From: a virus
Reading direction: 5' to 3' (one strand)
Virus genome (UHGV): UHGV-1497260
DNA: 48,617 nucleotides
Both the position numbers and the translations under genes were made by a program. How positions within the stretch are numbered: position 1 is the stretch's first letter; each line of letters starts with the position of its first letter. A model generated the notes under the pieces. That model was not told the origin of the DNA and did not search any database. It saw only the letters and a program-made list of their open reading frames with translations. Of the stretch, positions 1 to 48,617 are shown one piece after another.

Positions 1-58
1 GATGACCTTTGACCCTTAAAATGATGACCTTTGACCCTTAAAATGATGACCTTTCATC
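1..58. repeat. iteron array: 22-bp unit GATGACCTTTGACCCTTAAAAT, two full copies plus a diverged third copy; continues the array at the window end
   Basis: identical 22-mers at 1-22 and 23-44, and a partial diverged copy at 45-58; the same unit occurs at 48529-48617. Confidence 0.9.
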
Positions 59-59
59 T

Positions 60-266
60 CTGAAACCTAGATATACCAATTATTATAGCTTGTCTAAAAA
101 CTATTAAAGACTTTAAAAACTGTTTTAAAAACTATTAAAGACTAGAAAAGATGTTCTGAACTATTCTTTTTTTATATTAAAAAACTTTAGTATTTATTTT
201 TCTAGTATACTTTAAACACTTACTAAAAATAATTTCTTATAAAAGATTGGAGATGAAGAATTTTTT
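60..266. promoter_or_regulatory. AT-rich region beside the iterons (candidate DNA unwinding element) with 17-bp direct repeats AAAAACTATTAAAGACT at 96-112 and 127-143
   Basis: sequence reading; iteron + AT-rich stretch + initiator is the usual theta-origin layout. Confidence 0.5.
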
Positions 267-956
267 ATGCTTGAAAACAGAAAACAAATTCAGAAAGAAA
301 TTTACTTACCAATAGCAACATATTGTTTAAAAGATAAGCAATATTATATAAAAGAATATGGAGCACTATTAATAAAGAGTGCTGAAAATAGTGACATTTT
401 TAATACCCATAAAAATAGAATTTTGTATAAGAATAAACTTGATATTCAAGAAATAGCAAATGAACTGAATGTAAATAAAGCAACAATCCAAAGAAATATA
501 AAAAAACTAGAGAAGTTAGATTTTAAAATTCTAAAAATAGAAAATACCCTAAATGGAATTGTATATTGTTTGCCGTCAGAAAATAATATTGATTTAAACA
601 AATTTGCATTGATAAATTATGAAATGCTTAAAAAAATAGTCAATAAATTTAAATCAAATACAATAAAAGTATATTTTTTACTTAAAACAATCACTACAGA
701 AACTAATTTTAAACCTGCAACTAATAGTTTTATAGCAGAAAATATAGGACTAAGTTCTAAAAGTAAAAATAATTTAGATATCATAACTTCTTCTGTTAAA
801 ACTTTAGAAGAAAATAAATACATTGAAACAAAAAAAGTAAATGTATATGAATATGACAAAGAAAAACTTAGAGAAGTTCCAAAAATAAGAAAAGTTTATC
901 GGATTTGTAATTTTGATGAGTGGAAAAAGGAAATTGATAAAAATAAAGTTTATTAA
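267..956 (+). CDS. DNA-binding protein with two tandem winged-helix/HTH-like segments; possible replication or regulatory protein next to the origin
   Basis: HTH-like segment IQEIANELNVNKATIQRNIKKLEKL and a second similar segment in the C-terminal half; sits between the iterons and the BlaI-like gene. Confidence 0.4.
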   Translation: MLENRKQIQKEIYLPIATYCLKDKQYYIKEYGALLIKSAENSDIFNTHKNRILYKNKLDIQEIANELNVNKATIQRNIKKLEKLDFKILKIENTLNGIVYCLPSENNIDLNKFALINYEMLKKIVNKFKSNTIKVYFLLKTITTETNFKPATNSFIAENIGLSSKSKNNLDIITSSVKTLEENKYIETKKVNVYEYDKEKLREVPKIRKVYRICNFDEWKKEIDKNKVY

Positions 957-1104
957 ATATAGCTTAAAAGCATTTAAAGGCTTGTCTGACACGTTTTAAT
1001 TGCAAACTTGATATTATTTACCTAAAAAGATACAAATTTGCTTAAAAATGGAAATAGAAGGTCAAATATAAAAATAGAGAACCAAATAAAATTATATTGG
1101 CTCT

Positions 1105-1488
1105 CTATTTATCTTCTTCCCAATCCTCAATAAACTTTTCTAAACTTTTTAATTTATTTGCAGATATTTCTTCATCATCATGTAATGCACTTATAAAACT
1201 TTCAAAGGAATTTCTGTGAAAGAAACTAAAGAAACTTTTAGTTTCAACTTTTAAATATTCTTCTTTTTCTATTAATGCTTTATAATATGTAAATCTATCT
1301 TTCTTAACAACTTCTAAAAATCCTCTACCAACTAACCTTCTTAAAAAAGTTAACATAGTTGATTTTTTCCATTCATATTTTTCACCTAATGTTTTTAAAA
1401 TTTCAGTAGATGCAACTTCTTCATCTTCACTATCCCAAATGTACATCATTACCAAAAGTTCTGATTCTGGAATCTTTTTTATCTTCAT
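1105..1488 (-). CDS. BlaI/MecI/CopY-family winged-helix transcriptional repressor
   Basis: segments ELLVMMYIWDSEDEEVASTEILKTL...EWKKSTMLTFLRRLVGRGFLEVVKKDRFTYYKALIEKEEYL match the penicillinase-repressor fold; the second in-frame Met has an AAAGGTGG ribosome-binding site, so start is placed at 1488. Confidence 0.7.
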   Translation of the reverse strand: MKIKKIPESELLVMMYIWDSEDEEVASTEILKTLGEKYEWKKSTMLTFLRRLVGRGFLEVVKKDRFTYYKALIEKEEYLKVETKSFFSFFHRNSFESFISALHDDEEISANKLKSLEKFIEDWEEDK

Positions 1489-1698
1489 AAAGCACACCAC
1501 CTTTTCAAAAGTATAACTAAAATACTATAACAATAGAGTTAACTATACAATACTAAATGTCTAAAAATGTTATTCCAATTTTTACCAATTAATTTTTCTT
1601 TAAAAAAAATTTAAGCAGGAGTAAAAAAAAATAAAAAATTATCAAAATTTATCAATATAAAAAGAAATATAAGTATAAATTTTTCTCTTTGTATATTG

Positions 1699-2988: not shown

Positions 2989-3696
2989 TTGAAAATTTCA
3001 GATTTTAATAAAGATCATATAGGTAAAGCGATTCAACTACAAGAGACAAGATTTAATGTCATAACGGATTGCATCATCACAGAAGTAGAAGTAGGCGAAA
3101 TTGTTGTAATGTTTTACATGCAAGAAAATGATGACACAGGATACAAGGCTATAACATGGGAAGATTTAAAAAATTATATCATAAATGGCAAAGGGAAGAG
3201 GCATTATAGGATTTTTGTGGCTTGGGGGATTGTTATAAAAAGAGGTATAACCTCTTTTTATAACTCTTCATTTTTGATTTTTAGATATGCATTGTCAATT
3301 ATTTTTTCTATCGCTTCTCTATCTTCATCTTCCAATGCAAATATCTTTTTTATCATAGTTTTTATTTCTTCACTAGTTTCTAAATCTTCTGTAATGTCAA
3401 CGAACATTTCACCTTCTCCATGCAATAACCATTGTTCATTTACATTAAATTCTCTACAAATATCATTTATGGTTCTTTGTGGTATCTTTCTATGCCCTGT
3501 TTCATATGAAGAGATTTGCGAAAGAGACAAACCTAATTTTTTGCCAAAATCTTTTTGTTTTAATTTCTTTGAAAGCCTTATATCTTTAAGTCGTTGTCTT
3601 CTTTCATTATCTTCTAAGTTTTGTTTTTCCATAACGTCACCCCTTATGAGTATAATTATAACATTTAAAAATACGCTTTGCAATTACAAATTTTAA
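2989..3696 (+). CDS. small conserved phage protein P1 (paralogue of 3966-4172); N-terminal ~85 aa supported, 3-prime end uncertain because the frame stays open across the antisense of XRE2
   Basis: IGKAIQLQETRFNVITDCIITEVEVGEIVVMFYMQE aligns with IGTAVQLQDIRFDTKVDCIITKVEKNEILVMYYEKE of the 3966 ORF; TTG start with AAGGGGAG ribosome-binding site as in the paralogue; segment KNYIINGKGKRHYRIFVAWG resembles the C-terminus of the 4201 initiator. Confidence 0.4.
   Translation: MKISDFNKDHIGKAIQLQETRFNVITDCIITEVEVGEIVVMFYMQENDDTGYKAITWEDLKNYIINGKGKRHYRIFVAWGIVIKRGITSFYNSSFLIFRYALSIIFSIASLSSSSNANIFFIIVFISSLVSKSSVMSTNISPSPCNNHCSFTLNSLQISFMVLCGIFLCPVSYEEICERDKPNFLPKSFCFNFFESLISLSRCLLSLSSKFCFSITSPLMSIIITFKNTLCNYKF
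3258..3632 (-). CDS. XRE-family HTH repressor (CI-like), copy 2
   Basis: HTH segment LKQKDFGKKLGLSLSQISSYETGHRKIP; start MEKQ with AAGGGGTGA ribosome-binding site; paralogue of 2256-2624. Confidence 0.85.
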   Translation of the reverse strand: MEKQNLEDNERRQRLKDIRLSKKLKQKDFGKKLGLSLSQISSYETGHRKIPQRTINDICREFNVNEQWLLHGEGEMFVDITEDLETSEEIKTMIKKIFALEDEDREAIEKIIDNAYLKIKNEEL

Positions 3697-3770
3697 AAAA
3701 ATACGCAAAATAAAATAAAAACTCAAAGCGTATTGACATAGTATGCAAAGCGTAATATAATTGAATCACA
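3690..3770. promoter_or_regulatory. operator/promoter region of switch 2: CAAAGCGTA words at three sites overlapping a consensus TTGACA-17-TATAAT promoter
   Basis: ATACGCTTTGCAA, CAAAGCGTATTGACA and GCAAAGCGTAATATAAT read directly; one operator word lies in the promoter spacer. Confidence 0.65.
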
Positions 3771-3785
3771 GGAAGGAGTGTTAGA

Positions 3786-3962
3786 ATGAATCAAGAAAAA
3801 GAAAAAGCGAATGATTTGTTATTAAAACTTGAACTTCTTAAAAAGATAAACCCACAAGAGTTTGGATACATAAGCGGAAGAATAGACGTAAATATTGAGA
3901 AGTTAAAACAAGAAACCGAAAGAAATAAAAGCAAAAAAATAAGATATAGGAAGGGGGCTTAA
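3786..3962 (+). CDS. small Cro-position protein (58 aa) divergent from XRE repressor 2
   Basis: ribosome-binding site AGGAAGGAG; sits downstream of the consensus promoter. Confidence 0.45.
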   Translation: MNQEKEKANDLLLKLELLKKINPQEFGYISGRIDVNIEKLKQETERNKSKKIRYRKGA

Positions 3963-4200: not shown

Positions 4201-4920
4201 ATGGATCTTTTGAAAGATGCAAGAAAAAAAGAATGGTTTTGGCTGGAAAATGATTTGGTGGATAGAGAGGATCTAAGTGTTTACGAAAAAATGGCTTATA
4301 TGGTAATGGCAAGATATTCAGATGATGAAAGTTCTTGTTTCCCAAGTTTATCATTAATATCCAAGAAAATGGGATGCGGAATAACGACTGTCAAAAAAAC
4401 AATAAATAGTTTAGAAGAAAAAAATTTAATAATAAAAGTACATCGCAAGGTTAAAAACAAAAAGGAAAATGATACAAATGTTTATTACATTATGAGTTTG
4501 AAAGGTAAGTCGTCTGGCGACATAGGTCATGAGGCGACAGACGGTAGGTCGCCATACGACCAACAGGTAGGTCGCGAGGCGACTAGTAAAAAGACTTATA
4601 ATAAAAAGACTTATATAAAAAGTAATACCACTACACAAAAAGAATCTAAAACTTATTTAGACCTATCATTTTTAGATTTAGATATAGAAAAAGTAAAACT
4701 AACTAAAGATGAATATGACAAACTTATAAGCAAGTTTGGAAAGAAATACATACATGATAAAATTGTTAGTTTAGAAAACTATATCGTAAATGGTAAAGGG
4801 AGTAGATATAAGAGTCATTACAGAGCTTTGTTGACTTGGGGGAATGGAGATGCTAGTAAAGGTATAGTACCAGAAGTTACAAAGACTAAGAATCCTCTTA
4901 GTGGATTTAAAGAACTTTAA
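4201..4920 (+). CDS. phage replication initiator / replisome organizer (DnaD-like, N-terminal winged-helix)
   Basis: segment WFWLENDLVDREDLSVYEKMAYMVMARYSDDESSCFPSLSLISKKMGCGITTVKKTINSLEEKNLI is typical of firmicute phage initiator N-termini; C-terminal NYIVNGKG..ALLTWG motif; immediately upstream of the helicase. Confidence 0.65.
   Translation: MDLLKDARKKEWFWLENDLVDREDLSVYEKMAYMVMARYSDDESSCFPSLSLISKKMGCGITTVKKTINSLEEKNLIIKVHRKVKNKKENDTNVYYIMSLKGKSSGDIGHEATDGRSPYDQQVGREATSKKTYNKKTYIKSNTTTQKESKTYLDLSFLDLDIEKVKLTKDEYDKLISKFGKKYIHDKIVSLENYIVNGKGSRYKSHYRALLTWGNGDASKGIVPEVTKTKNPLSGFKEL
4505..4586. repeat. GC-rich island of direct and inverted repeats inside the initiator gene (GGTAGGTCGC x2, GAGGCGAC x2, GGCGAC/GTCGCC inverted); candidate phage origin
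   Basis: roughly 60% GC in a ~28% GC genome; repeats read directly; analogous to the lambda origin lying inside its O gene. Confidence 0.55.
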
Positions 4921-4947: not shown

Positions 4948-5133
4948 ATGAATGAAAAAGAAGAGACTGTTTATTTGAATAGTTCTAATGTGAAGTTATT
5001 CTTAGGTGTTAGGGATATTAAGGAATTTGAGGAATTGATAGAAAATGTCAATGAGCGAATTTGTCAACTCCAAGAATCGATTAATAAACTTGCCCAATTT
5101 AATATTGAGTTCGAGATTAAGTCAGATATTTAG
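4948..5133 (+). CDS. hypothetical protein
   Basis: ORF with AAGGAGG ribosome-binding site. Confidence 0.4.
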   Translation: MNEKEETVYLNSSNVKLFLGVRDIKEFEELIENVNERICQLQESINKLAQFNIEFEIKSDI

Positions 5134-5159
5134 TTAAGTATAAATTAGGAGGATTGTTT

Positions 5160-5378
5160 ATGGCAGATAAAACTGTAGAACTTACTGAAAAGGATTTGCA
5201 CTGCATTGCAAGGCATTTGCAAAATGAAGTGTTAGAGATAGCATTTAGAGGAAACAGAGAAGCCCCTACATCTTGTGAAGTTTGCGATTACTTCGAAGAA
5301 TGCAAGGACTATTTCACCCATATAGACACTTTTATAAAATTAAGTGAAATGACAGGTGTAGATATTTTTACTAAATAA
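5160..5378 (+). CDS. small conserved protein A1 of the duplicated cassette (unknown function)
   Basis: about 80% identical over the first 50 aa to A2 at 5772-6032 (ELTEKDLHCIARHLQNEVLEIAFRGNREAPTSCEVCDY); AGGAGG ribosome-binding site. Confidence 0.55.
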   Translation: MADKTVELTEKDLHCIARHLQNEVLEIAFRGNREAPTSCEVCDYFEECKDYFTHIDTFIKLSEMTGVDIFTK

Positions 5379-5662: not shown

Positions 5663-5771
5663 ACATGCAAATTATCATGGTGTAGAATTAAAGCATAGGT
5701 CAATTAAATTTAGTTATAAAATCAATGAAACAGATAAATAATTAAATGTTAAATAAATTAGGGGGTTGTTC

Positions 5772-6032
5772 ATGAAAGAGGAAAAGTTAGAACTTACTGA
5801 AAAAGAATTGCATTGTATTGCAAGACATTTGCAAAATGAAGTTATGGAGATGGTATTTAGAGGGAATAGAGAAGCCCCCACATCATGTGAAGTTTGCGAT
5901 TACCTGCAAGAATGTGAGGGAGATTTTACCTGTATGTATCATTCTTTTACTAAATTAAGCAAAATAACAGGTGTAAAAGTGACTGCATTTAAGTATTGTT
6001 TTCCAGATGAAAATCCCAAAGCTACTATCTAA
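5772..6032 (+). CDS. small conserved protein A2 (paralogue of A1)
   Basis: paralogy read directly; GGGGG ribosome-binding site. Confidence 0.55.
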   Translation: MKEEKLELTEKELHCIARHLQNEVMEMVFRGNREAPTSCEVCDYLQECEGDFTCMYHSFTKLSKITGVKVTAFKYCFPDENPKATI

Positions 6033-6689: not shown

Positions 6690-8018
6690 ATGAATTACTC
6701 TTTAGAAGCAGAGCAAAACATTCTAGGAAGTTTTCTTATAAATGACTCTATAGGTTACAAAATAAGGGAATTAAAAGAAAATGATTTCTACTTTGAGTCA
6801 CATAAAATTATTTTATCTTGTATGAAGAGAATAATTGACTCAAATAAACCTTTAGATCTTTTGCTTTTAAAAAATGAACTAGAAAAAATAGATAGATTAG
6901 TAGACGTTGGAGGAGTTAGTTACATTACCAGTTTAACAACTATAGTCATAACTACTTCAAACATAGATCACTATATAAAAATCATAAAAGAGAAGTTACT
7001 TAAAAGACAAATTTCAGAGTTAGCAAATGAATTAATTAATAATTCAAATTCAGATAAAAGTATAGACGAATTGATTGTAGATATAAACGATTTAAAAGCA
7101 CTTGTGACGACGAGCAGTAGTGTAAATGATAATTACATTGATGCGTCAAAAATAAAGCGTGAAAAAGGCGTACACAAGTCCATAGACACAGGTTTTAATA
7201 AACTAAACAATATGCTAGATGGATTTAGATATGGAACTCTTACAATTTTGACTGGTAAACCTGCGTCTGGTAAATCAACTATAGTTAACCAGTTTATAGC
7301 ACAAGCAATTACGAATGGAGAAAAAGCATTTTTGTATTCTGGAGAATTACCCTCTTTCATGGCTATGGATTGGTTTAGAAAAACTGTAGCTAATGATTAT
7401 CACATAAAAGAATATAAAAGTGTCTATGGAGGAACATACACAGATATTCCAGATTATGCCTCTGAACTTATTTCAGACTGGATAAAAGATAAATTTTTTC
7501 TCTATGACGAAGATGCAATAAGTGATGAAGTAAATCTACTAAATACCATAGAGCATTTATATTTAAAAAAAGGGGTTAGGTTCTTTGTTCTTGACAATCT
7601 AATGACAATAAAAACTGGCAAGGCAGATAAATATGAGAGACAAGAGCAGATAGTAAGCAACTTAAAAAACCTTGCTAAAAAATATAACTTAGTAATAGTT
7701 TTAGTTGCACATCCTCGTAAAAATATGGGTGACATGAAGCCAACTATGTATGATGTGTCTGGAGCAAGTGAGATTGTTAATTATGCAGATTATATTTTAT
7801 CAACATACAGGGTTATTGACGAAGAAGAAGAAACAGACGACACTTATCTATTAATTTTAAAAAATAGAATAACAGGAAAACAGAATATAAGTTTTAAAAT
7901 GAATTTTTCAGAAAGAAGAAAAAGACTTTACACGACTAGTGAGGAGTTAAACAGAGATTACAAATATGATGTAAATAAACAATATGTTCAAGTAGAAATT
8001 CCAGAAGATGTATTTTAA
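6690..8018 (+). CDS. replicative DNA helicase, DnaB-like
   Basis: N-terminal DnaB-type segment EAEQNILGSFLIND; Walker A GKPASGKST; hexameric-helicase-like C-terminal region. Confidence 0.8.
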   Translation: MNYSLEAEQNILGSFLINDSIGYKIRELKENDFYFESHKIILSCMKRIIDSNKPLDLLLLKNELEKIDRLVDVGGVSYITSLTTIVITTSNIDHYIKIIKEKLLKRQISELANELINNSNSDKSIDELIVDINDLKALVTTSSSVNDNYIDASKIKREKGVHKSIDTGFNKLNNMLDGFRYGTLTILTGKPASGKSTIVNQFIAQAITNGEKAFLYSGELPSFMAMDWFRKTVANDYHIKEYKSVYGGTYTDIPDYASELISDWIKDKFFLYDEDAISDEVNLLNTIEHLYLKKGVRFFVLDNLMTIKTGKADKYERQEQIVSNLKNLAKKYNLVIVLVAHPRKNMGDMKPTMYDVSGASEIVNYADYILSTYRVIDEEEETDDTYLLILKNRITGKQNISFKMNFSERRKRLYTTSEELNRDYKYDVNKQYVQVEIPEDVF

Positions 8019-9587: not shown

Positions 9588-9770
9588 ATGAAAATGATTT
9601 CTCATATGAACATTTTAGAAAGAGCAGAATTTACAGATAAAATAGCTAATGCAATCATGTCTGCAAATAAAGAAATTGAAAGAGGCTGTGCCTTTAATGA
9701 AGCAGTTGAGATTGTAAAACAAATGGAATATAGAGAAAATAAATACAATGAAGGAGATATTGCAATATGA
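9588..9770 (+). CDS. small hypothetical protein
   Basis: GGAGGGG ribosome-binding site. Confidence 0.35.
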   Translation: MKMISHMNILERAEFTDKIANAIMSANKEIERGCAFNEAVEIVKQMEYRENKYNEGDIAI

Positions 9771-10144
9771 ATAATGTAGTTTTAGTTGGAAGATTAGCAA
9801 GAGATCCAGAATTAAGATATATACCAGAGTATGGTACTCCAGTTGCTACTTTTGCATTGGCAGTTGATAGGGGTTATACAAAAAAGGATGGAACTAGAGA
9901 AGTCGATTTTATACCAATTGAAGTTATGGGAGGATCCGCAGAATTTTGTGCTAATTATCTCGCAAAAGGAAGAATGGTTTCAATTCAAGGCCAAATAAGG
10001 ATAGAAAAATATGAAAAAGATGGAGAGAAAAAAACTTTCACAAAAGTAAGAACAAAAATTGTTAATGCGCTTGATCACAAGCCAAAGGATGAAGAAAAAG
10101 AAATTAGTTTTCAAGTTTTAGATGATGAAGATATTCCATTTTAA
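9767..10144 (+). CDS. ssb: single-stranded DNA-binding protein
   Basis: N-terminal NNVVLVGRLARDPELRY OB-fold signature and acidic C-terminal tail DDEDIPF. Confidence 0.9.
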   Translation: MNNVVLVGRLARDPELRYIPEYGTPVATFALAVDRGYTKKDGTREVDFIPIEVMGGSAEFCANYLAKGRMVSIQGQIRIEKYEKDGEKKTFTKVRTKIVNALDHKPKDEEKEISFQVLDDEDIPF

Positions 10145-10706
10145 ATTGGATGGTGATTATGTGAGAAGTTTAGAGGAGAGAAATAAATTATTTGAAGATA
10201 ATATAAATCTTGTACATTTTATTATAAATAGATATTTCAAATCCTTTTTAAGAAGGTATCCATATTTAAAAGAAGATTTATTTCAAGAAGGATATATAGG
10301 ATTATATAAAACAACATGTTGCTTTGATGAAAGTAAAGGAAAATTTTCTACAATAGCATTTTCGTATATATCAGGACATTTGAAAAGATTTACGACTGGA
10401 TATGTTAAGAAACATTATAGAAATGATATAGATAGTTTTGAAAAGTGTATTTATAGAGATAATTATGGAGAAGAGATAAGAATAGAAGATAGATTGGCTG
10501 GCAATGAAAATGTAGATATAGAAAATGTTCGTGTTATTAGATCTTGTATAAAAAGAAGTGAGATAAAAGATATACAGAAAATAGTTTGTCTAAGAGAAAA
10601 AGGTTATACTCAACAAGAAATAAGTAAAGTGCTTGGAACTAGCCAAACGTCAATATATAGGAGACTTAAAAAATTAAAAACTGAAATTAATATACTAGGT
10701 AAATAA
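10122..10706 (+). CDS. sigma-70 family RNA polymerase sigma factor (ECF/TcdR-like, regions 2 and 4)
   Basis: region 2-like segment DLFQEGYIGLYKTTCCFDESKGKFSTIAFSYISGHLKRF; region 4 HTH GYTQQEISKVLGTSQTSIYRRLKKLK; true start may be the internal GTG near 10161. Confidence 0.7.
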   Translation: MMKIFHFKLDGDYVRSLEERNKLFEDNINLVHFIINRYFKSFLRRYPYLKEDLFQEGYIGLYKTTCCFDESKGKFSTIAFSYISGHLKRFTTGYVKKHYRNDIDSFEKCIYRDNYGEEIRIEDRLAGNENVDIENVRVIRSCIKRSEIKDIQKIVCLREKGYTQQEISKVLGTSQTSIYRRLKKLKTEINILGK

Positions 10707-13370: not shown

Positions 13371-13389
13371 AGTAAGGAGATAATATAAT

Positions 13390-14200: not shown

Positions 14201-14296
14201 AAATGTCCGATTTGTGACGATTTTAAACCGATTTATGTCTGTTTTGTGTCTAAAAAATGTCCGATTTGTGACCAATTTATGTCTGTTTTGTGTCTT
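14201..14296. repeat. two tandem ~45-bp direct repeats AAATGTCCGATTTGTGAC..ATTTATGTCTGTTTTGTGTCT (copy 1 has a 9-nt insertion)
   Basis: sequence reading; sits between the ArpU-like gene and the late operon. Confidence 0.8.
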
Positions 14297-34832: not shown

Positions 34833-34833
34833 A

Positions 34834-36453: not shown

Positions 36454-36469
36454 AGAGGAGAGTGAGAAA

Positions 36470-38095: not shown

Positions 38096-38112
38096 TAATA
38101 TGAGGTGATGAT

Positions 38113-38406
38113 ATGAATAGAGGAAATAGAGTAATTTATAATCAAGACGGAAAGATATTACTCCAAACAGGAGAAGCAACAGGGGATATATTAGAGCATG
38201 ATACAATAACAGAATTACATTATATTGATGTTGGATACGGAAATATAGACTATAGTAAACAGTATATAGAATCTATAAATCCAATAACAAAAGAACCTAT
38301 TTTAAAAGATATTCCAATCTATTTAAGCGAAGAAGAAAAGAGAATACAAGAGTTAGAAAATCAATTACTAATTGCAGAAAATGAAAAAGTGGGAGGATTA
38401 TTATAA
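38113..38406 (+). CDS. hypothetical tail-associated protein
   Basis: ORF. Confidence 0.4.
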   Translation: MNRGNRVIYNQDGKILLQTGEATGDILEHDTITELHYIDVGYGNIDYSKQYIESINPITKEPILKDIPIYLSEEEKRIQELENQLLIAENEKVGGLL

Positions 38407-38588
38407 TGAATATAAATAATGTTGTAGTAAGAATATTAGCAGAGAGAATATTAAACAAAGGATTAAACCCTCTAAAAAATCGAGAATTTGAATTAGATGA
38501 CGTAACTAACACAGAGTATAGAAAAGCAGTAGAGGATTATATAATTAAACAGAGTGGAGTAGTAGAAGGAATAGAACCAACAGCGTAG
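38406..38588 (+). CDS. small XkdX-like protein
   Basis: size and position. Confidence 0.35.
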   Translation: MNINNVVVRILAERILNKGLNPLKNREFELDDVTNTEYRKAVEDYIIKQSGVVEGIEPTA

Positions 38589-38620
38589 TAGGTTCTTTTT
38601 TTATTGAAAGAGGTGATTAA

Positions 38621-39187
38621 ATGACTTTTAAGGAGTTAGTTAATAAAGTTAGAAATCTTGTATTAGAAGCAAAGAATGTAACTATAGAAGATACAGAAAG
38701 TAAATTTACAAGTGAAAATGTAGAAGGAGCATTGAAAGAATGTATAGATAGAGCAGATGAGGCTTTTCAAGAAGCCGATAGTGGAAAAACACTTTTATCA
38801 ACTGCTATCGGCTCTCCTGCTACACCAGAACAAACATTTCAAGATTATGCGAACTATATTACAGGATTTAAGAGCAATATAAGCAATTTAGAAACTCAAT
38901 TGAAAAGCAAATATTCTATTAGACATGGTCCCATTGATGGAGATGATAGGAATCCTTTTTCTGCTAATTTTGGCAAGAGTGCAAGTTACCTTATTGTCTA
39001 TGTTTACTTTAGAAGAAATGTATATTATTATAATCCCAGTGGTAGTTCTTTAGGAAGTAGTACAGGAGGCTCTGAACGTGCCTGGATTACTATAGATAGC
39101 AATAAAACTGGTTTTTCAGTTCATTCATATGATACTAATTATGAGTCATATACTTTTACAGGTTATTATATTGCTTGTTTCGCATAA
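38621..39187 (+). CDS. hypothetical protein
   Basis: ORF with GAGGTGA ribosome-binding site. Confidence 0.4.
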   Translation: MTFKELVNKVRNLVLEAKNVTIEDTESKFTSENVEGALKECIDRADEAFQEADSGKTLLSTAIGSPATPEQTFQDYANYITGFKSNISNLETQLKSKYSIRHGPIDGDDRNPFSANFGKSASYLIVYVYFRRNVYYYNPSGSSLGSSTGGSERAWITIDSNKTGFSVHSYDTNYESYTFTGYYIACFA

Positions 39188-39217
39188 TAAATTATATTAT
39201 TAAAACTAGGAGGATGT

Positions 39218-39508
39218 ATGGAAGAAATTAGCATAAATCTATTATGTGCAGTTGCAGGAGTTGTAATATCCTACTTAGCATTTAGAAATAGTTCAAACAG
39301 AAAGATACAAGATGATACAGAAACAACTACAAAATTAGAACAACAAATAACTTTTCTGTGTGAGAATGTAAGAGATATAAAGCATGATGTAGCAAAGTTT
39401 AATACAAGTTTCTTAGATATCAGTGAACGAGTTGCAAAAGTAGAAGCAAGTACAAAACAAGCACATCTTAGAATTGATGAAATTATAAATAGAATTGGAG
39501 GAAAATAA
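39218..39508 (+). CDS. membrane-anchored coiled-coil protein (XhlA/hemolysin-like lysis accessory)
   Basis: N-terminal transmembrane segment INLLCAVAGVVISYLAF, then a coiled coil; position before the holin. Confidence 0.4.
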   Translation: MEEISINLLCAVAGVVISYLAFRNSSNRKIQDDTETTTKLEQQITFLCENVRDIKHDVAKFNTSFLDISERVAKVEASTKQAHLRIDEIINRIGGK

Positions 39509-39511
39509 AAG

Positions 39512-39769
39512 ATGGATAATTTAATAAGTTTTATACCAGAGCAGTTACTAATTTTAGTAGCTGCTCTTTATGTTATAGGAGCAGGTTGCAAGAAATATAA
39601 GCAATTAGATAATAAATATATTCCAGTAGTGTTATTGATACTTGGTATAGGTTTCTCAATATGGATGCTAGGATTAAATCCTAACGCAGTCTTACAGGGA
39701 ATAATTTGTTGGGGAATATCAATAGGTATAAATCAAACTTACAAACAATTAAAGGAGGAAAACAAATAA
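39512..39769 (+). CDS. holin
   Basis: 85 aa with two transmembrane segments and a charged C-terminus; immediately upstream of the endolysin. Confidence 0.6.
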   Translation: MDNLISFIPEQLLILVAALYVIGAGCKKYKQLDNKYIPVVLLILGIGFSIWMLGLNPNAVLQGIICWGISIGINQTYKQLKEENK

Positions 39770-40584
39770 TGAAAATAGGTATAAATTGTGGACATACAAA
39801 AACAGGACCAGGAAGTGGAGCTATAGGTAAAATAAATGAGTCAATAGAAACTAGGAATGTAGGATATAAAGTAATTGATAAATTAAAAAAACTAGGCAAT
39901 AATGTAGTCGATTGTACTATAGATAAAGCATCTACTCAATCAGAATGTTTATCTAAGATAACAGCACAAGCTAATAGACAAGATTTAGATTGGTTCATAT
40001 CAATACATTTCAACGCTGGAGGTGGCAAAGGATGTGAAGTTTACACATATAAAGGTAAGCAGTATCAAGATGCTATAGATGTTTGTAAAAAAATCTCTGA
40101 TTTAGGATTTACAAATCGAGGTGTAAAAGATGGAAGTGGATTATATGTAGTAAAGAAAACAAAAGCTAAAAGTATGCTAATAGAAGTATGCTTTGTAGAC
40201 ACCGAAGATGCAAATAAGTATTTGAGTTTAGGAGCTGATAAATTAGCTACTGCAATAGTAGAAGCTATAACTAAACATATAAGTTCAGCAGAAGAAAACA
40301 ATTATAACAGATATAAACATACTATAGTATATTCTGGAGATGATAAAGTATCAGCAGACATTTTAGGATTATATTATAAGAGAGAAAAAGAAAGTTACTT
40401 AGTAACAGATATAAAAGACTATAAGCCACATAGAACACAAAATTTGTATGTAATTGGTGGAGTAACTTGTAATAAAATGAAAGAAATGAGTAAGACTACA
40501 GGAGAAAAATTTACTCAACTATATAGTAATGATGTATGGTCAACAATGGATAAAGCTATAGAATTTGTAAAAGAAAAATTATAA
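39770..40584 (+). CDS. endolysin: N-acetylmuramoyl-L-alanine amidase (Amidase_3) with a CD27L-type C-terminal domain
   Basis: N-terminal MKIGINCGHT...HFNAGGGKG amidase_3 segments; C-terminal YKHTIVYSGDDKVSADILG...DIKDYKPHRTQNLYVIGG resembles the CD27L endolysin C-terminal domain (from memory, not a search). Confidence 0.8.
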
Positions 40585-40655
40585 ATTAAAAGACAACCTT
40601 TAAAAATTAATTGTTAATAAAACTAATAAAATTTTCAACTCAGAAGGAACATTAT

Positions 40656-41762
40656 ATGTTAACATTTTTAGATTTGTTTGCTGGCATTGGAGGTTTTAGG
40701 CTGGGAATGGAAAGAGCAGGACACAAATGCGTAGGCCATTGCGAATACGATAAATTTGCAAACTTAAGTTACAAAGCAATGCATAACCCAAAGGAGGATG
40801 AATGGTTTGAAAAAGACATTAGAGAAATTAGAGCAGAAAATATTCCCAAAGCAGATGTGTGGTGTTTTGGATTCCCATGTCAAGACATTAGCATTGCAGG
40901 GAACAAACTTGGATTCAAAGGAAGTCGTTCAAGTTTATTTTTCTCAGTTACAAAAATTATTAGAGAACTCAAAGAGGAAGATAGACCCAAGTACTTACTT
41001 ATTGAAAACGTTAAAAATTTACTTAGTGTTAATAGAGGATTTGACTTTGCCAAACTTCTCATTGAGTTGGACGAAATCGGCTATGATGCAGAATGGCAAA
41101 ATCTCAATTCTAAAAACTTCAGAGTTCCCCAAAATAGAGACAGAGTGTACATTATTGGACATCTTAGAGGCAGAAGTACAAGAAAAGTATTTCCTATCAC
41201 AGGAACGAGTAGAAAAACTACTCTTAAGCAAATAAATAGTCCTAGCCATAGTTCAAATAGAATTTATGATTCAAGCGGATTATCAAAGTGTTTATTAAGT
41301 AAAGGTGGAAATAACACAGGTCTTTATAAAGTTGGTAATGTCAATCCTAGCGGAAATGGTATAGGAGGACAAGTATATAATAGTAAAGGATTATCTCCAA
41401 CCCTTACAACTGAAAAAGGAGAAAGCCCAAAGATATTGATTAAAGAAAATACTAAAAAAGGACATATTGAGGCAGCTATAGGAGATGGCATAAGACTAGA
41501 TCATATAGGAGGCAAAACGGGGCGTGGAAGAGTTCAACACAAAAGAAGTTGTACTTTGACTACTGCAAGTAATGCTGGCGTAATTGGTAAAAAATTTAGA
41601 GTAAGGAGGTTGACTCCAAAAGAATGTTTTAGGTTACAAGGATTTCCAGACGATTATTACGATAGAGCGGCAAGTGTCTGTTCAGAAACTCAACTATACA
41701 AGCAAGCAGGCAATAGTGTTACTGTAGATGTTGTTGAAGAAATAGCAAAGAAATTAAAATAG
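40656..41762 (+). CDS. DNA (cytosine-5)-methyltransferase, orphan
   Basis: motif I FAGIGGF, motif IV GFPCQDIS, motif VI ENVKNL; no adjacent restriction endonuclease. Confidence 0.85.
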   Translation: MLTFLDLFAGIGGFRLGMERAGHKCVGHCEYDKFANLSYKAMHNPKEDEWFEKDIREIRAENIPKADVWCFGFPCQDISIAGNKLGFKGSRSSLFFSVTKIIRELKEEDRPKYLLIENVKNLLSVNRGFDFAKLLIELDEIGYDAEWQNLNSKNFRVPQNRDRVYIIGHLRGRSTRKVFPITGTSRKTTLKQINSPSHSSNRIYDSSGLSKCLLSKGGNNTGLYKVGNVNPSGNGIGGQVYNSKGLSPTLTTEKGESPKILIKENTKKGHIEAAIGDGIRLDHIGGKTGRGRVQHKRSCTLTTASNAGVIGKKFRVRRLTPKECFRLQGFPDDYYDRAASVCSETQLYKQAGNSVTVDVVEEIAKKLK

Positions 41763-41781
41763 AATATTAATACAATGCAAA

Positions 41782-41828
41782 ATGTGGTAGGTTTTTCCTT
41801 CCACCCTTTGCATTGTATTAGCTTTTTT
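41782..41828 (+). terminator. hairpin AATACAATGCAAA-loop-TTTGCATTGTATT followed by GCTTTTTTGG
   Basis: 13-bp stem with ~24-nt loop and T-run; lies after the methyltransferase gene and before the BlaI-like gene. Confidence 0.55.
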
Positions 41829-41899
41829 GGAATAACTTACCTGTACTATCTTAAATAAAAAAATGCTACTATATTATAAACATTTACAAGGAGTGCATC

Positions 41900-42235
41900 A
41901 TGTTAACACAAAGCTTAAAACGTGGCGAATTAAGTATAATGAAAATCTTTTGGAAAAGAAGTTCAAGCATATCAAAGAAAGAAATTATTCGCCTTTGCAA
42001 TGAAAAATACAAGTGGCGGAAATCTACAACAAAAATTCTACTTAAAAGACTTGTTAAAAAAAGAGTCTTGCTTAAAAGAATTAAATTTTTCCACATATAT
42101 TACATACCTATAGTTACAGAAAAGGAATACATTAAATGTAAAATGAATAATTTAGAGCCAAATTATCTGGATGGATACTTTGTACGATTAATGTCTACTG
42201 CACATAAATTCAAAAATATAGATGAAGAAGATTAA
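41900..42235 (+). CDS. BlaI/MecI/CopY-family repressor, second copy (diverged)
   Basis: ELSIMKIFWKRSSSISKKEIIRLCNEKYKWRKSTTKILLKRLVKKRVL aligns with the 1105-1488 protein (ELLVMMYIWDS...KYEWKKSTMLTFLRRLVGRGFL). Confidence 0.55.
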   Translation: MLTQSLKRGELSIMKIFWKRSSSISKKEIIRLCNEKYKWRKSTTKILLKRLVKKRVLLKRIKFFHIYYIPIVTEKEYIKCKMNNLEPNYLDGYFVRLMSTAHKFKNIDEED

Positions 42236-42245: not shown

Positions 42246-42761
42246 TCATCTGCTCTTCACATATTTTAATAGACTTTCAAGCAATAATTGACTTAACAAA
42301 TCATGTTTATCATAATGTTTATTCTCATCTGCAAATTTATTAAACATTCCCCACACTGTATTATTTACCCTAATTGTAGTTCTTTTTATAGACTGATCTG
42401 GAAGATCTATAGATATATCATTTTCTTTAATGCCATCTATATGACATTTATCATCTTTAGTTTTAAACCATTCTAGCACACTTTTTATATTATCAATTTC
42501 ACTAGATAAATATTTAATATCGTCATCAATCTTACTGCTAATGCTATCTATATGATATTTATCATCATAACTTTTATTATCTTCTACAAACTTGTTTCCA
42601 GTTCTTTTATATCCTTTCTTATTAAGCCACTTCCTTATAGTACTTTCATTTGCCCCTAATTCATCTCCAACTTTTTTAAGACTTTCAAATTTACTTAATT
42701 TATTATTAATACAATCAACAACTTCATTAATATTTTTTTCTTTCAAATCACTCCAAGTCAT
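42246..42761 (-). CDS. HTH-domain protein with internal repeat DDKYHIDSI / DDKCHIDGI
   Basis: HTH-like segment LKKVGDELGANESTIRKWL; GAGGAGG ribosome-binding site before MTWSDL. Confidence 0.5.
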   Translation of the reverse strand: MTWSDLKEKNINEVVDCINNKLSKFESLKKVGDELGANESTIRKWLNKKGYKRTGNKFVEDNKSYDDKYHIDSISSKIDDDIKYLSSEIDNIKSVLEWFKTKDDKCHIDGIKENDISIDLPDQSIKRTTIRVNNTVWGMFNKFADENKHYDKHDLLSQLLLESLLKYVKSR

Positions 42762-42773
42762 ATAAATCCTCCT

Positions 42774-42817
42774 CAAAAAAATAATAGATTACAAATATCA
42801 TATATTTGTAATCTATT
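42774..42817 (-). terminator. intrinsic terminator for parM: 16-bp-arm inverted repeat AATAGATTACAAATAT-cat-ATATTTGTAATCTATT with U-run on the minus strand
   Basis: perfect dyad; the A7 run on the plus strand is a T-run for the minus-strand transcript. Confidence 0.65.
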
Positions 42818-42843: not shown

Positions 42844-43749
42844 TTATTTCATCATTTTTTTGTATCCTTTTGCATTTGCAAAAACATGTTTATCTACATC
42901 ACTCATAACTATTATGCCAGGTATATTCTTTTTAAATGCTTCACCTAACAATTTAGCACCTCCACCCATAACAACAACCGCAGCTGTACTAACTGGATAA
43001 TTTAATTTCAATTCATTGTATATTTCTTTAAATAGAGAAATAGATGCATCTATATTTTTCTTTATATCTTGTTTTTCACCATTTAGGTAAAATCCTTTAT
43101 TTATGTAGTCTTGTATTTTTTCTCTTTTTATCTCAACTTTACCTAAAAATCTTTCGTCCATCTCAAGAGATTTCTTTATTGCATCATATATATTTATTGT
43201 TCCCACATTTATAGAATATGGATTAGTTGCTTTATTTCCTTGTACAAGTGCAATATCTGTTGTCTTTCCACCAATATCAACTAAAACAACATCTCTTCCT
43301 GCAACTTGGTCAACTATATCTTTTGCATAATATAAATAGCCTGTAACGCCCTCTGGGAACACTTGAACAGATCTTATTACTATATCTCTTTTAGTAGTTT
43401 CATTTCCTTTTGCAAATTCAACATGATATTCTTTTCCTTGTAATTTTTCAATCAAATCTTTTCTTAATCCTCCAAATTGCTTCACTGGTAGACCTAATGC
43501 TAGATCAATAACTTCATCATCTGTATTTCTGCATATAGCCCCAAGTAAAAGCGGTAAGAAGTTTTCTTTCTCATATTTAACTATATTTATTTCTTCGTCA
43601 CCTTCGCCTAAATAATATGTTTTATTACCTATTTTAATGCTATCTGAATCTGAACCAAAGTTTTTTACCTCTGTAACTTTACTTTCAAAAATATCATCTG
43701 TACTTGTTTTAACTGCATAATTTCCAATATCTATACCTAATTTACTCAT
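42844..43749 (-). CDS. parM: ParM/Alp-family actin-like segregation ATPase
   Basis: N-terminal MSKLGIDIGNYAVK phosphate-1 motif; actin-fold motifs DIGGKTTD and VVMGGGA; paired with a small upstream gene. Confidence 0.75.
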   Translation of the reverse strand: MSKLGIDIGNYAVKTSTDDIFESKVTEVKNFGSDSDSIKIGNKTYYLGEGDEEINIVKYEKENFLPLLLGAICRNTDDEVIDLALGLPVKQFGGLRKDLIEKLQGKEYHVEFAKGNETTKRDIVIRSVQVFPEGVTGYLYYAKDIVDQVAGRDVVLVDIGGKTTDIALVQGNKATNPYSINVGTINIYDAIKKSLEMDERFLGKVEIKREKIQDYINKGFYLNGEKQDIKKNIDASISLFKEIYNELKLNYPVSTAAVVVMGGGAKLLGEAFKKNIPGIIVMSDVDKHVFANAKGYKKMMK

Positions 43750-43768: not shown

Positions 43769-43972
43769 TTATTCTAAACTTCCAAAATCAAAATTGTTAG
43801 CTGGATCTTCTATTTCTTTTTTCTGTTCAACTACAGCATTATCCTTTTTTTCATTCATTTTTTCCCAAACAAGCTCTTTTAAATAAGCCGTAGCTGATAA
43901 TTTCTCATCTAAAAACTTTTCAATTGCTTTTTCTTTATCATTGTTTTTAAATGTTAGAACTATCCTACTCAT
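43769..43972 (-). CDS. parR: ParR-like centromere-binding adaptor (ribbon-helix-helix-like N-terminus)
   Basis: 67 aa, directly upstream of parM and directly downstream of an AT-rich repeat region. Confidence 0.5.
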   Translation of the reverse strand: MSRIVLTFKNNDKEKAIEKFLDEKLSATAYLKELVWEKMNEKKDNAVVEQKKEIEDPANNFDFGSLE

Positions 43973-44059
43973 TCAACCACTTCCTTTTTTGTAAAATATT
44001 ATAAAATTTATTAATATTTACATATATTTTACCAAATTTTATACAGTAATTCAATAGAT

Positions 44060-44150
44060 TTATAAGATATTATTTATAAAATTTTATAATTTTTTACGTA
44101 ATTTTATAATATTTTATAAATTTTATCATTTTGTATATAATTAAAAACAC
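44060..44150. repeat. parC-like centromere: multiple ATTTTATAA repeats including the palindrome TTATAAAATTTTATAA
   Basis: sequence reading; upstream of parR. Confidence 0.55.
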
Positions 44151-45680: not shown

Positions 45681-46415
45681 TTAAGAATTTGCATTACAAT
45701 AATCAGAAAGCTTGTCCCACTCACAATCAACCCCTATTATTTTAAGAATATCATTGACTTGGCTATTTAAATCTTTAATATCTGATTTAGACATTAAAGG
45801 ATCTTTCATTATTTCATTTAGAAAAATACTATCAATGATTAAACATACATTTTCTGATATATATTCACGTTTTACTGAGATTGCTGTTCCAACTACACTT
45901 TCTTTTAATGTCTTGTATGCTACACTCATTATACATGGTTCTAACTCAATTCCTTCTAGTGTTATTTCAAAAGAATATCTTATTTTTATATTTTCATTTC
46001 CAATAAATATTTCTTCATTGCTGCTTATCTTCTTTAATTTTCTCATTATGCCTAACATCTTAGCATTCACTTCATAATTTATTCCATATCTCTTTGATGC
46101 CAAACTCGACATTAAGTCTCTTTCTAAATAAATTACCCACTGACCATTATAGGAAAATGATGTTTTAGCGATATCCATTTCTCCTTTTCCAGTAATATTA
46201 AATTTAGGCTCTAGTTTATTTATTAAGTAAATCTCATAAAAATCCATAGTATATTTATTATCTAATTCCATATACTCAAGTCTTAAATTCTTATTACACC
46301 AATTTTCTTTTTTATTACTTAAATGACTAGCGTGTCTATCACAGATATTCTCTGTTTTCCCAACGTATAAACATTCTTCCGTATCTTGATTAATATATTT
46401 ATAAACATAATACAT
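45681..46415 (-). CDS. GIY-YIG nuclease-domain protein, copy 2
   Basis: N-terminal YVYKYI...LYVGKTEN...RH..H...FYEIYLINKLEPKFN carries the GIY, YIG, Arg and Glu motifs; divergent C-terminus. Confidence 0.75.
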   Translation of the reverse strand: MYYVYKYINQDTEECLYVGKTENICDRHASHLSNKKENWCNKNLRLEYMELDNKYTMDFYEIYLINKLEPKFNITGKGEMDIAKTSFSYNGQWVIYLERDLMSSLASKRYGINYEVNAKMLGIMRKLKKISSNEEIFIGNENIKIRYSFEITLEGIELEPCIMSVAYKTLKESVVGTAISVKREYISENVCLIIDSIFLNEIMKDPLMSKSDIKDLNSQVNDILKIIGVDCEWDKLSDYCNANS

Positions 46416-46434
46416 TTTTTATTTTCTCCAATTC

Positions 46435-47235
46435 TTAATTGTCATATTTACAGCCCTTATATATTTCAAATAATTCTTGCCATGTATATCCAACTTCTAG
46501 TATGTGAAAAATATCCTCTATTTGTTGGAAAATCTCAGTAATTTTATATTCAAATGTTGGCATTAATTCCATTAAATTAGCCAAAGATCCAATCCTAATC
46601 TCTAATGTTATATTTATAAGTATTTTTTTATTTGTTGCTGTATATTCTTTCCATCTGGGATAAACTGAAATCAAAGAACAACTTCCAAATCTTTCTAATG
46701 TTTCAAAATCATATGATATCAAATTAATATCTAATTCATTCTCACAAAATTCTATATCCATATTTTCAAAGTTATATAGCACACTTAAAACATTATTTTC
46801 ATATAACATTTCAACCTTGGCATCTAACTTTTCAATTCTCTTTAAAAAATTAATAGATTTTTTACTTACTTCATATTTCATATCTATCTTTCTTTCTCTG
46901 AATCTTCTTTTTCCCTTTGTCTTTTCCTTAAAATCTTCTTCTGAATATGTACTCCAATCTTCTTCCTTGTAATCAAAAAAGATGTGTTCAGTATCCATAT
47001 CACCTTTACTTAGTTTATTAAATATTGGATTTAGTTCATTTATTAAATAAACTTCAAAAAAATCCATATTATATCTACGTGGAAGTTCAATATATTTTAA
47101 TATTAATTCTTTAGTACACCAATCTTCTTCTTTATTACTCAAATGAGATGAATGCCTTGCATATATATCTTCTGTTTTTCCAACGTATAAACATTCTTCT
47201 GTAGCTGGATCAATATATTTATAAACATAATACAT
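46435..47235 (-). CDS. GIY-YIG nuclease-domain protein, copy 1
   Basis: same motifs (YVYKYI, LYVGKTED, FEVYLINELNPIFN); first ~100 nt and the ribosome-binding-site region nearly identical to copy 2. Confidence 0.75.
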   Translation of the reverse strand: MYYVYKYIDPATEECLYVGKTEDIYARHSSHLSNKEEDWCTKELILKYIELPRRYNMDFFEVYLINELNPIFNKLSKGDMDTEHIFFDYKEEDWSTYSEEDFKEKTKGKRRFRERKIDMKYEVSKKSINFLKRIEKLDAKVEMLYENNVLSVLYNFENMDIEFCENELDINLISYDFETLERFGSCSLISVYPRWKEYTATNKKILINITLEIRIGSLANLMELMPTFEYKITEIFQQIEDIFHILEVGYTWQELFEIYKGCKYDN

Positions 47236-47254
47236 TTTTTATTTTCTCCAATTT

Positions 47255-48442
47255 TTATTTATAGTAATATCCTTCTTCATTTACTATACCTTGATCAAAT
47301 AAATTTCTCCTAACAGTTTCAAGTCTGACAGGATCTTTGCTATAATCAACTTCTCTTTCTTCTTTTTTAACATCTTCATCATCCCAATATTTATCTAATT
47401 CTTCTTTAAACTTTAAATCATCTTTTTGATGAATTATAACTTCACTTATTTTATTTGAAAGTGTTGATTTAAAAAAATCATAATTCTTTGTATTTATAAT
47501 ATCAGTATTATCTCTTTCAAATGCTATAGCAATAGACTTATTAAAAGCATTCAGATAAACATCTTTCTTAAAATCAAACTCTTTAAAATCTTCTTTAAAT
47601 AGTTTAATCGTCCCTGTTGTAAAAATATTTTCATTTGGTATATAAAAACTAAAAGACACTTCATTGTCCTGCTTCTTTTTAGGTATATAATCTTCAACCA
47701 ATATATCTTTATCAAAATATTTTCTAGGTTCATAATCTATCACAGAAAAAATTATTTCATCTATTTTTCTATTTTTTCTTTTTTCTTCTTTTATTGAAAC
47801 AACCATGTTGCCTTTTTTATTTATTTCATTCATTGCTCTTTTTAGAACATTTTGTTTAAAATATTTATACTCTGGATATACATTATCTTTTAATTTCAAA
47901 TAAAATCTTAATTCATCTAACTTATATTTTATCTCCACTTCCTTATTTTCTCTGCTCCATAGTCTAAATAAAGTGTATAACCTCTGAGTATATGCACCTC
48001 TAAAATTAAATAACACTGATAAATTAATAGCTGTATATCCATTTTTCTTTTTCTGCATTTTTACAAAATCAGTTATATGATTGTATAGAACTTCATGCAT
48101 CATAATTGTATAAATTTGGTCTGTATGATCCAATTCATATGTATTAATTAAACCACTTCCAAAAGTTTTTAACTTGCCAGTTGTCTCTTCTATATAGTCA
48201 AATTCCAAAACACTTTGTTGAAACATGTTCAAAATTTCTTTTATATTTTTATGCTCATAATCATTATTGTTTTTCATAAATACTTTTAGTTCTTCTTTTG
48301 ATATAGTTGTAACATAAGATGAATTTTGCTGTTTCTGAGCATTAAAAAGTATTTTGTAAAATAATTTATTTTCCACATTTGTAAAATCATATTTACTTTT
48401 TATTAAATTATTTGGTTGCATTAAAATTTCTTTTTTTTCCAA
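47255..48442 (-). CDS. plasmid replication initiator, Rep_3-like (iteron-binding)
   Basis: N-terminal segment NNLIKSKYDFTNVENKLFYKILFNAQ resembles the Rep_3 family signature; gene abuts the iteron array. Confidence 0.65.
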   Translation of the reverse strand: MEKKEILMQPNNLIKSKYDFTNVENKLFYKILFNAQKQQNSSYVTTISKEELKVFMKNNNDYEHKNIKEILNMFQQSVLEFDYIEETTGKLKTFGSGLINTYELDHTDQIYTIMMHEVLYNHITDFVKMQKKKNGYTAINLSVLFNFRGAYTQRLYTLFRLWSRENKEVEIKYKLDELRFYLKLKDNVYPEYKYFKQNVLKRAMNEINKKGNMVVSIKEEKRKNRKIDEIIFSVIDYEPRKYFDKDILVEDYIPKKKQDNEVSFSFYIPNENIFTTGTIKLFKEDFKEFDFKKDVYLNAFNKSIAIAFERDNTDIINTKNYDFFKSTLSNKISEVIIHQKDDLKFKEELDKYWDDEDVKKEEREVDYSKDPVRLETVRRNLFDQGIVNEEGYYYK

Positions 48443-48506
48443 AATCTATCACCTCATATAAATTATAATACCTAATTTATAAAAAGGTCAACTATTTTTG
48501 AAAGAC

Positions 48507-48617
48507 GCTCACCTTTGACCCTTAAAATGATGACCTTTGACCCTTAAAATGATGACCTTTGACCCTTAAAATGATGACCTTTCGACCCTTAAAATGATGA
48601 CCTTTGACCCTTAAAAT
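48507..48617. repeat. iteron array: one degenerate plus four 22/23-bp copies of GATGACCTTTGACCCTTAAAAT
   Basis: copies at 48529-48550, 48551-48572, 48573-48595 (one inserted C) and 48596-48617; degenerate copy at 48507-48528. Confidence 0.9.

Follow-up and report, generated by a model that had tools for sequence, protein, structure and literature searches.

The virus genome UHGV-1497260 was analysed over its full length of 48,617 nucleotides (hereafter the window) and is, with very high confidence, a phage-plasmid of Clostridioides difficile of about 48.6 kb, belonging to the pCDBI1/pDLL3026/pDSM1296 family and combining phage genes with plasmid maintenance. The term phage-plasmid is used in the sense of Pfeifer et al. 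2021. Genes for plasmid replication and partition (Rep_3, ParM) and a full set of phage genes are carried on one replicon, and the ends of the window are contiguous in closed plasmids and in an identical contig that crosses the junction; the circular phage-plasmid described in an earlier note on this DNA is thereby borne out. The family (pDLL3026, pCDBI1, pDSM1296, pAK2, pCDT4) has already been published and is very common in C. difficile; the element is not new and has little weight as a discovery. What is added here is anatomical, namely a plasmid origin defined by six 22-bp iterons, a conserved A/T-rich block and an abutting rep promoter, together with the co-variation of Rep and iterons and a candidate lytic origin inside the phage initiator gene. 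These features could be of use in the design of mini-replicon vectors or of strategies for curing C. difficile.

Closure of the circle

The exact 22-mer GATGACCTTTGACCCTTAAAAT is present as a direct repeat at 1-22, 23-44, 48529-48550, 48551-48572, and 48596-48617; a copy with two mismatches is found at 48507-48528, a copy with a 1-nt insertion at 48573-48595, and a half copy at 45-54. The left part of the array (48507-48617) thus holds five copies, the first degenerate and the fourth one nucleotide longer, and continues in the right part (1-54) with two full copies and a half copy; in the closed plasmids the array is internal. When up to three mismatches were allowed, the 22-mer occurred six times, only at the window ends, and not once in 100 shuffled sequences. 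Because the final base of the window completes an iteron unit and the first base opens one, the two ends join in register, and the observation in the earlier note of one iteron at both ends was correct.

Closure was deduced from closed plasmids and an identical contig rather than from reads. The order rep, iterons, A/T-rich block, helix-turn-helix (HTH) gene is internal in two closed circular plasmid records, colinear with the joined window ends. Loci of contig JBJNXN010000003.1, which match the window with 100% identity, cross the 48617/1 junction in two alignments that share exactly 22 nt. Judged by these alignments, the window goes once around a circular molecule that has been linearised inside the plasmid origin.

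The joined ends give seven full iterons, against six full iterons in all seven independent relatives. Since the relatives have six and the 100%-identical contig shows the 22-nt overlap, the window ends probably hold one 22-bp unit too many, so that the circle would measure about 48,595 bp; the extra iteron (1-22 versus 48596-48617) is most likely an untrimmed circularisation overlap. Where the earlier note expected about seven to eight tandem copies in a circular molecule, the joined array has seven full ones, one of them probably redundant. The redundant unit could also be taken to mean that the end repeats arose purely by overlap when a linear contig was assembled, and that a true iteron array is lacking, an objection that the earlier note had itself foreseen. 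It applies to the one unit, whereas six full units are found in every independent assembly, closed long-read plasmids included, and divergent relatives carry arrays that are equivalent but differ in sequence. The array is genuine, and we consider an explanation by assembly overlap extremely unlikely.

Relatives, carrier contigs and particles

In a megablast search against plasmids, 13 C. difficile plasmid records matched, five of which align with 80% or more of the window's first half, with 91-98% identity. The plasmids p840101_1 (NZ_CP132147.1), that of DSM 1296T (NZ_CP011969.1), and pCDBI1 (NC_017176.1) show 95-98% identity at 80-95% coverage. The relatives examined closely are deposited as closed circular molecules of 45-47 kb. 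With the pCDBI1/pDLL3026/pDSM1296/p840101_1 family ('megaplasmids', 42-48 kb) the window shares gene order, a 99.5% identical Rep, iteron sequence, ParM, recombinase, and virion genes. It differs from this family in the one extra iteron unit at the join, and from two closed relatives in the fibre-lysis-methylase cassette (35997-41822) and in a segment of the switch region (3091-3956).

As reviewed by Fortier (PMC6127314), Amy et al. 2018 described the 46-kb pDLL3026 and similar plasmids with phage structural genes, recombinases, and parM/parR; whether such elements are plasmids or phages has been debated, and Amy et al. 2018 classed those of the pDLL3026 type as plasmids. Hornung et al. (PMC6807378) assigned pCDBI1 to a 'phage/megaplasmid' cluster, and in the study of Dost et al. 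(PMC11316560) 87.7% of ST8/RT002 genomes were found to carry pCDBI1, pAK2, pCDT4 (48.6 kb), and pCD161-S (48.6 kb). Besides PMC6127314 and PMC11316560, PMC12291638 also describes the family and how prevalent it is.

To look for junctions with a chromosome, we went through contigs that encode the exact Rep, recombinase, LysM, and fibre proteins. In 366 of 453 collection blocks, the contig with the exact Rep is 20-50 kb long, and the recombinase and a tail protein follow the same pattern. A few carriers are longer (101 kb, 395 kb, 464 kb, 675 kb, and >1 Mb), and these, together with the presence of a tyrosine recombinase, would be expected if the window had been cut from a chromosome holding an integrated prophage and if its terminal repeats had nothing to do with circularity. 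Four long contigs were considered, two of which were resolved, and neither of these shows integration. The record of >1 Mb (FN668375.1) is a pseudo-molecule built by scaffolding, and a 100-N gap adjoins the element in it. Contig JBJNXN010000003.1 (395 kb) holds copies joined head to tail, whose Rep genes recur every 48,593 bp and of which 395 kb would accommodate about eight; it is a tandem concatemer or multimer, or a long-read assembler over-run, and not a chromosomal insertion. One of its units (L019) has a different fibre/lysis end. Contig FUNO01000003.1 (675 kb) begins, by coordinate arithmetic, at the fibre gene, for which a repeat-driven mis-join is the simplest reading because the exact fibre protein and the downstream lysis order are also found in chromosomal prophages. 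Moreover, in closed plasmids and in the 100%-identical contig the two ends of the window adjoin, and the recombinase is devoid of an N-terminal DNA-binding domain and has homologues that coexist with a true integrase. Judged by the contigs that were resolved and by the closed plasmids, an integrated prophage cut out of a chromosome by the window has next to no probability in our view, as compared with an extrachromosomal phage-plasmid.

The chromosomal prophages in question are integrated myovirus prophages in closed genomes (CP045173.1, CP081023.1), in which the exact 541-aa fibre protein is encoded ahead of lysis genes in the same order (window 36470-40584) and the tail genes are different. 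The shared fibre-lysis cassette suggests that modules have passed between episomal and integrated phages, and chimeric contigs probably arise through it.

Particle-protected DNA was sequenced by Schüler et al. (PMC10993401), who detected J2_1_phi2, SC083-01-01_phi2, and SC084-01-01_phi2 as extrachromosomal elements and used the name phage-plasmids for such elements. All three are records among the matches of the window, and J2_1_phi2 is 97.7% identical over 91% of the window's first half. For J2_1_phi2 a distinct particle-protected signal, both spontaneous and DCA-induced, was obtained (PMC10993401). On the strength of this literature on relatives, the present copy is predicted to propagate both as a plasmid and as a virion. 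A defective phage-plasmid would be a cryptic plasmid with captured phage genes that makes no infectious virions and is propagated vertically only. It would agree with the classification by Amy et al. 2018 (PMC6127314), with the weak particle signal of SC084-01-01_phi2 (PMC10993401), and with the phage collection, in which no plaque-forming phage of the exact family was found. On the other hand, the structural, packaging, and lysis genes of the window are all intact and of the same length as those of its relatives, and the J2_1_phi2 signal is distinct in both conditions (PMC10993401). We therefore regard a defective element as improbable, and prefer a functional phage-plasmid.

Several observations weigh against this preferred interpretation. 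The closest relative, SC084-01-01_phi2, had a low or uncertain particle signal, and two chromosome hits are mentioned in the same study (PMC10993401). Contigs FUNO01000003.1 (675 kb) and FJUG01000303.1 (464 kb), which were read within 10-kb flanks, carry the element, and rare integrated or chimeric forms are possible. The window is not an exact circle, as its joined array exceeds that of every relative by one unit, and for this copy the circular state is deduced by comparing its sequence with those of relatives.

Plasmid origin

The initiator, encoded on the minus strand at 47255-48442, is a 395-aa protein of the Rep_3 family with winged-helix domains WH1 and WH2 and a C-terminal extension of about 150 aa. 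Matches to Pfam Rep3_N (55.2 bits) and Rep3_C (55.1 bits) were each above cutoff, and weak matches (E about 0.003) were obtained in PDB to RepE (1rep, 2z9o) and related replication-initiator chains. The open reading frame (ORF) abuts the iteron array, and the Rep_3-like initiator reported earlier at this place is thus confirmed by both domains. Between the iterons and the rep start lies a candidate rep promoter (TTGACC-18-TATAAT, 48462-48491, minus strand; 11 of 12 positions matching), the -35 hexamer of which is an inverted copy of the iteron core TTGACC. By analogy with RepE/RepA, Rep probably represses its own promoter. The iterons are flanked by about five copies of the A/T-rich 10-bp repeat GTCTTTAATA (minus strand) at 95-144, a candidate DNA-unwinding region. 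DnaA boxes are not enriched in the window (12 found versus 16 expected), and none is present in the origin.

Two plasmids with the same phage backbone have more distant initiators, with 48.5% (p830101_1) and 40.9% (pESS17301c) identity to the Rep of the window. At the same position upstream of rep, p830101_1 has 6.6 tandem copies of the 21-bp repeat TTAAATGCGACACTTTGATAA and pESS17301c 6.0 tandem copies of the 21-bp repeat TAAATATTACTTTTGTAACGA, both unrelated to the iterons of the window, while the GTCTTTAATA repeats are kept in all three. The repeats thus change with the initiator and the flank stays constant, as expected of cognate iterons beside an unwinding region used by the host. Such co-variation, seen across three sequences, indicates that the iterons are specific to their cognate Rep. 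A fragment of a window-type iteron is retained nearby in p830101_1 (L034, 915-935), which points to replacement of the replicon in that plasmid. Co-variation of Rep and iterons suggests swapping of replicons on one phage backbone, with probably distinct incompatibility types. Taken together, the sequence features support the Rep_3 iteron origin as the predicted replicon of the element.

Compared with Rep_3 iteron plasmids (F RepE, pPS10 RepA, R6K Pi), the origin is alike in the WH1 and WH2 domains, tandem repeats of about 22 bp next to rep, an A/T-rich flank, and a promoter by the array; it is unlike them in that the similarity is distant, the initiator has the 150-aa C-terminal extension, and DnaA boxes are not enriched. 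Directly downstream of rep, two paralogous genes of the GIY-YIG nuclease family (Pfam) are found on the minus strand (46435-47235 and 45681-46415), and an internal DNA repeat of about 78% identity (46154-46440 versus 46976-47260) relates the pair. On the other side of the origin, a 229-aa HTH protein (Pfam HTH_11/HTH_36) is encoded on the plus strand at 267-956.

Partition genes

A ParM/Alp-type actin-like segregation ATPase is encoded on the minus strand at 42844-43749 (Pfam ALP_N, 65.8 bits; MreB-like_C and ParM_N, both above cutoff). Upstream, a parC-like region (43988-44132, minus strand) is made up of two clusters of degenerate 9-10-bp TTATAAAAT repeats, with a promoter-like site (TTGAAT-17-TAAAAT, 44054-44026) between them. 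The density of TTATAAAAT is the highest in the window here (12 per 160 bp versus a mean of 0.54), a test that is partly circular, as the motif was derived from the region tested; the repeats are also degenerate, and the DNA is A/T-rich. The repeats around the par promoter may serve as a candidate centromere.

Of the ParM/ParR pair that had been proposed, ParM was identified and ParR was not. Two small proteins are candidates for the centromere-binding adaptor. The first gene of the par operon (43769-43972, minus strand; phrog_4223) encodes 67 aa with an N-terminus that resembles a ribbon-helix-helix, as judged by eye only, and was modelled from its single sequence by AlphaFold2 as one long helix (pLDDT 70). 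The second candidate, a gene downstream of parM (42246-42776, minus strand; phrog_2727), encodes 176 aa; in its single-sequence AlphaFold2 model only the N-terminal winged HTH is confident, and a C-terminal beta-alpha-alpha fold is possible. Neither ORF had a ParR match in Pfam, PHROG, NCBIfam, or PDB sequence searches, and with Foldseek no PDB structure was matched below E = 1. Type II ParMRC systems (R1, pSK41, Alp7A) likewise combine an actin-like ATPase with a cluster of repeats ahead of it, on both sides of the operon promoter, and the layout resembles R1 parC; they differ in that no ParR is recognisable here and two small DNA-binding candidates are present, one upstream and one downstream of parM.

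Phage replication and regulation

The two replication systems described earlier do coexist, in that a phage initiator, a DnaB-like helicase, and a single-strand DNA-binding protein (SSB) are found beside Rep_3, but the name DnaD-like given to the initiator is only loosely right. This phage-type replication initiator (4201-4920, plus strand; HTH_36, phrog_270) has its best matches to phage replication-initiation and O-like families, and weaker ones to DnaD-like families. The DnaB-like replicative helicase (Pfam DnaB and DnaB_C; NCBIfam phage_DnaB below cutoff) is encoded at 6690-8018, SSB (Pfam SSB) at 9767-10144, and a sigma-70/ECF-type sigma factor, which would likely act as late-gene regulator, at 10122-10706, all on the plus strand. 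The plasmid-type and the phage-type system would divide the labour between the plasmid state and lytic growth.

A candidate lytic origin is located inside the initiator gene at 4503-4622, where four G+C-rich 19-bp repeats are followed by 15-bp A/T-rich repeats. The 19-bp repeats are spaced by 17, 22, and 23 bp, are each partly palindromic, and lie in the linker between the two domains of the initiator; local G+C content reaches 51%, versus a background of about 28%. The ori of lambda lies inside gene O, and that of P1 lytic replication (oriL) inside repL; by analogy, a role of the in-gene repeats as lytic origin is plausible.

Two CI-like repressors with an XRE-type HTH are encoded on the minus strand (2256-2624 and 3258-3683), as is a BlaI/MecI/CopY-type repressor (1105-1500). 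The latter, located by the origin region, and a second one of this type by the par operon (41900-42235, plus strand) are both present without a sensor-protease partner. An internal DNA duplication of about 78-80% identity (5133-5360 versus 5748-5975) was also observed in the early region.

Virion, packaging and lysis

Terminases, portal, capsid, sheath, tube, baseplate, holin, amidase, and CI-like repressors are all present, in agreement with the earlier description of a complete myovirus with virion, lysis, and lysogeny-switch genes. The small (15751-16209; PHROG 3218) and large (16764-18503; PHROG 38) terminase subunits are followed by the head module (18711-24525), with an SPP1-type portal, a MuF-like protein, a DUF4355 scaffold, the major head protein (21779-22702), connectors, and a tail terminator. 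The contractile-tail module (24526-38095) comprises sheath, tube, chaperone, tape measure (26649-30041), a LysM protein, NlpC/P60, baseplate J, a Mu gp48-like protein, and two fibre proteins. A holin and an N-acetylmuramoyl-L-alanine amidase endolysin are encoded at 39512-40584, followed at 40611-42235 by a C5-cytosine (Dcm) methyltransferase and the second BlaI/CopY-type repressor, at the place where integrating relatives end their lysis module. From the terminases to this second repressor, the genes are on the plus strand. The small and large terminase genes are separated by 555 bp of non-coding DNA (16210-16763) with A/T-rich repeats at 16279-16325 and 16490-16532, a possible packaging site. 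Scans of the window for tRNA genes and with Rfam gave no hits.

Short tyrosine recombinase

The recombinase (14892-15536, plus strand) is a 214-aa tyrosine recombinase that consists of the catalytic domain only (residues 16-193 match PF00589) and has no N-terminal core-binding domain, unlike multimer-resolution recombinases of the Xer/Cre type. It is the only recombinase in the window, as had been noted before, and no other appears in the Pfam lists for a 100%-identical copy. Its R, HxxR, H, and Y residues align with those of XerA (4a8e), so that, judged from these residues, it is probably catalytically active. Neither a full-length integrase nor an attP candidate was found in the window, and an inverted-repeat search of 14150-16800 returned A/T-rich palindromes only, without a convincing core site.

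The recombinase is 98% identical in phiSemix9P1 and HGP05, and many integrated Streptococcus prophages encode homologues with 37-39% identity immediately ahead of their terminase genes; the one checked, Streptococcus phage IPP18 (homologue at 12990-13532), also encodes a normal full integrase. Since it is a conserved phage gene that is also found in integrating prophages, the short recombinase speaks neither for nor against integration and says little about lifestyle, which is a correction to the earlier note. The placement of a recombinase before the packaging genes is common to plasmid-type C. difficile phages and integrating Streptococcus prophages with a normal integrase. From this conserved placement in both kinds of phage we tentatively suggest, with considerable doubt, that the recombinase may serve a shared uncharacterised function rather than integration, such as multimer or concatemer resolution prior to packaging, or DNA-binding regulation of the late operon. 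We know of no role described for short catalytic-domain recombinases before the packaging genes of Firmicutes prophages.

Upstream of the genes for phrog_3548, the recombinase, and the small terminase subunit, four direct 16-bp repeats ATGTCYGWTTTGTGWC are located in an intergenic region (14203-14294, plus strand). Four copies were found versus 0.21 expected; the repeat is unique to this place in the window and is conserved in 12 related loci.

Proposed life cycle and comparison with other phage-plasmids

In the prophage state, the element would be an unintegrated, circular, low-copy plasmid. The Rep_3 winged-helix initiator would bind the six 22-bp iterons beside the A/T-rich block for theta replication, and would probably also repress its own promoter abutting the array. 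Copies would be moved apart by ParM in a type II partition system, via a DNA-binding adaptor and a centromere of A/T-rich repeats around the operon promoter, while the CI-like repressors would hold the lytic genes off. Upon induction, the phage replication set (the HTH_36 initiator with its candidate in-gene origin, the DnaB-like helicase, and SSB) would take over, and the phage sigma factor would probably switch on the late genes. The DNA would then be packaged into contractile-tailed virions, to be released by holin and amidase.

Coliphage P1 has an iteron-controlled plasmid origin for lysogeny, separate lytic replication from an in-gene origin (oriL in repL), and active partition by a type I ParAB system; its tyrosine recombinase Cre is full-length and has a proven role in dimer resolution at loxP. 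Compared by organisation alone, from what is generally known of P1, the element is alike in its iteron origin, candidate in-gene lytic origin, partition, tyrosine recombinase, and myovirus virion; it is unlike P1 in having ParM instead of type I ParAB and a catalytic-domain recombinase instead of full-length Cre with loxP.

It is a general feature of phage-plasmids that phage genes are kept and plasmid genes vary. In the phage collection, only phiSemix9P1 and HGP05, both extrachromosomal, share the structural module (head and tail, 87-91% identity), in addition to the short recombinase. They differ from the window in their own ParA-like partition protein and in a RepB-family initiator only 27-28% identical to that of the window; they are also larger (56-64 kb) and carry cargo such as cdtAB, the binary toxin locus being carried by phiSemix9P1. 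With the same virion module but ParA/RepB, phiSemix9P1 fits the above rule.

Insertions were observed in two contigs of relatives. In MOTF01000007.1 (L005, 13444-19855), the insertion lies downstream of the rep-side genes and encodes a Tn916-type integrase/Xis, a MobT-like relaxase, and an RlmN/Cfr-like radical-SAM methyltransferase that was below every NCBIfam cutoff; it may be a resistance transposon on a phage-plasmid. In PRNF01000004.1 (L020, 11058-19039), a mobilisable element (MobA/MobL relaxase, MatE efflux, MarR, and a 431-aa integrase) is inserted between the LysM and NlpC/P60 tail genes.

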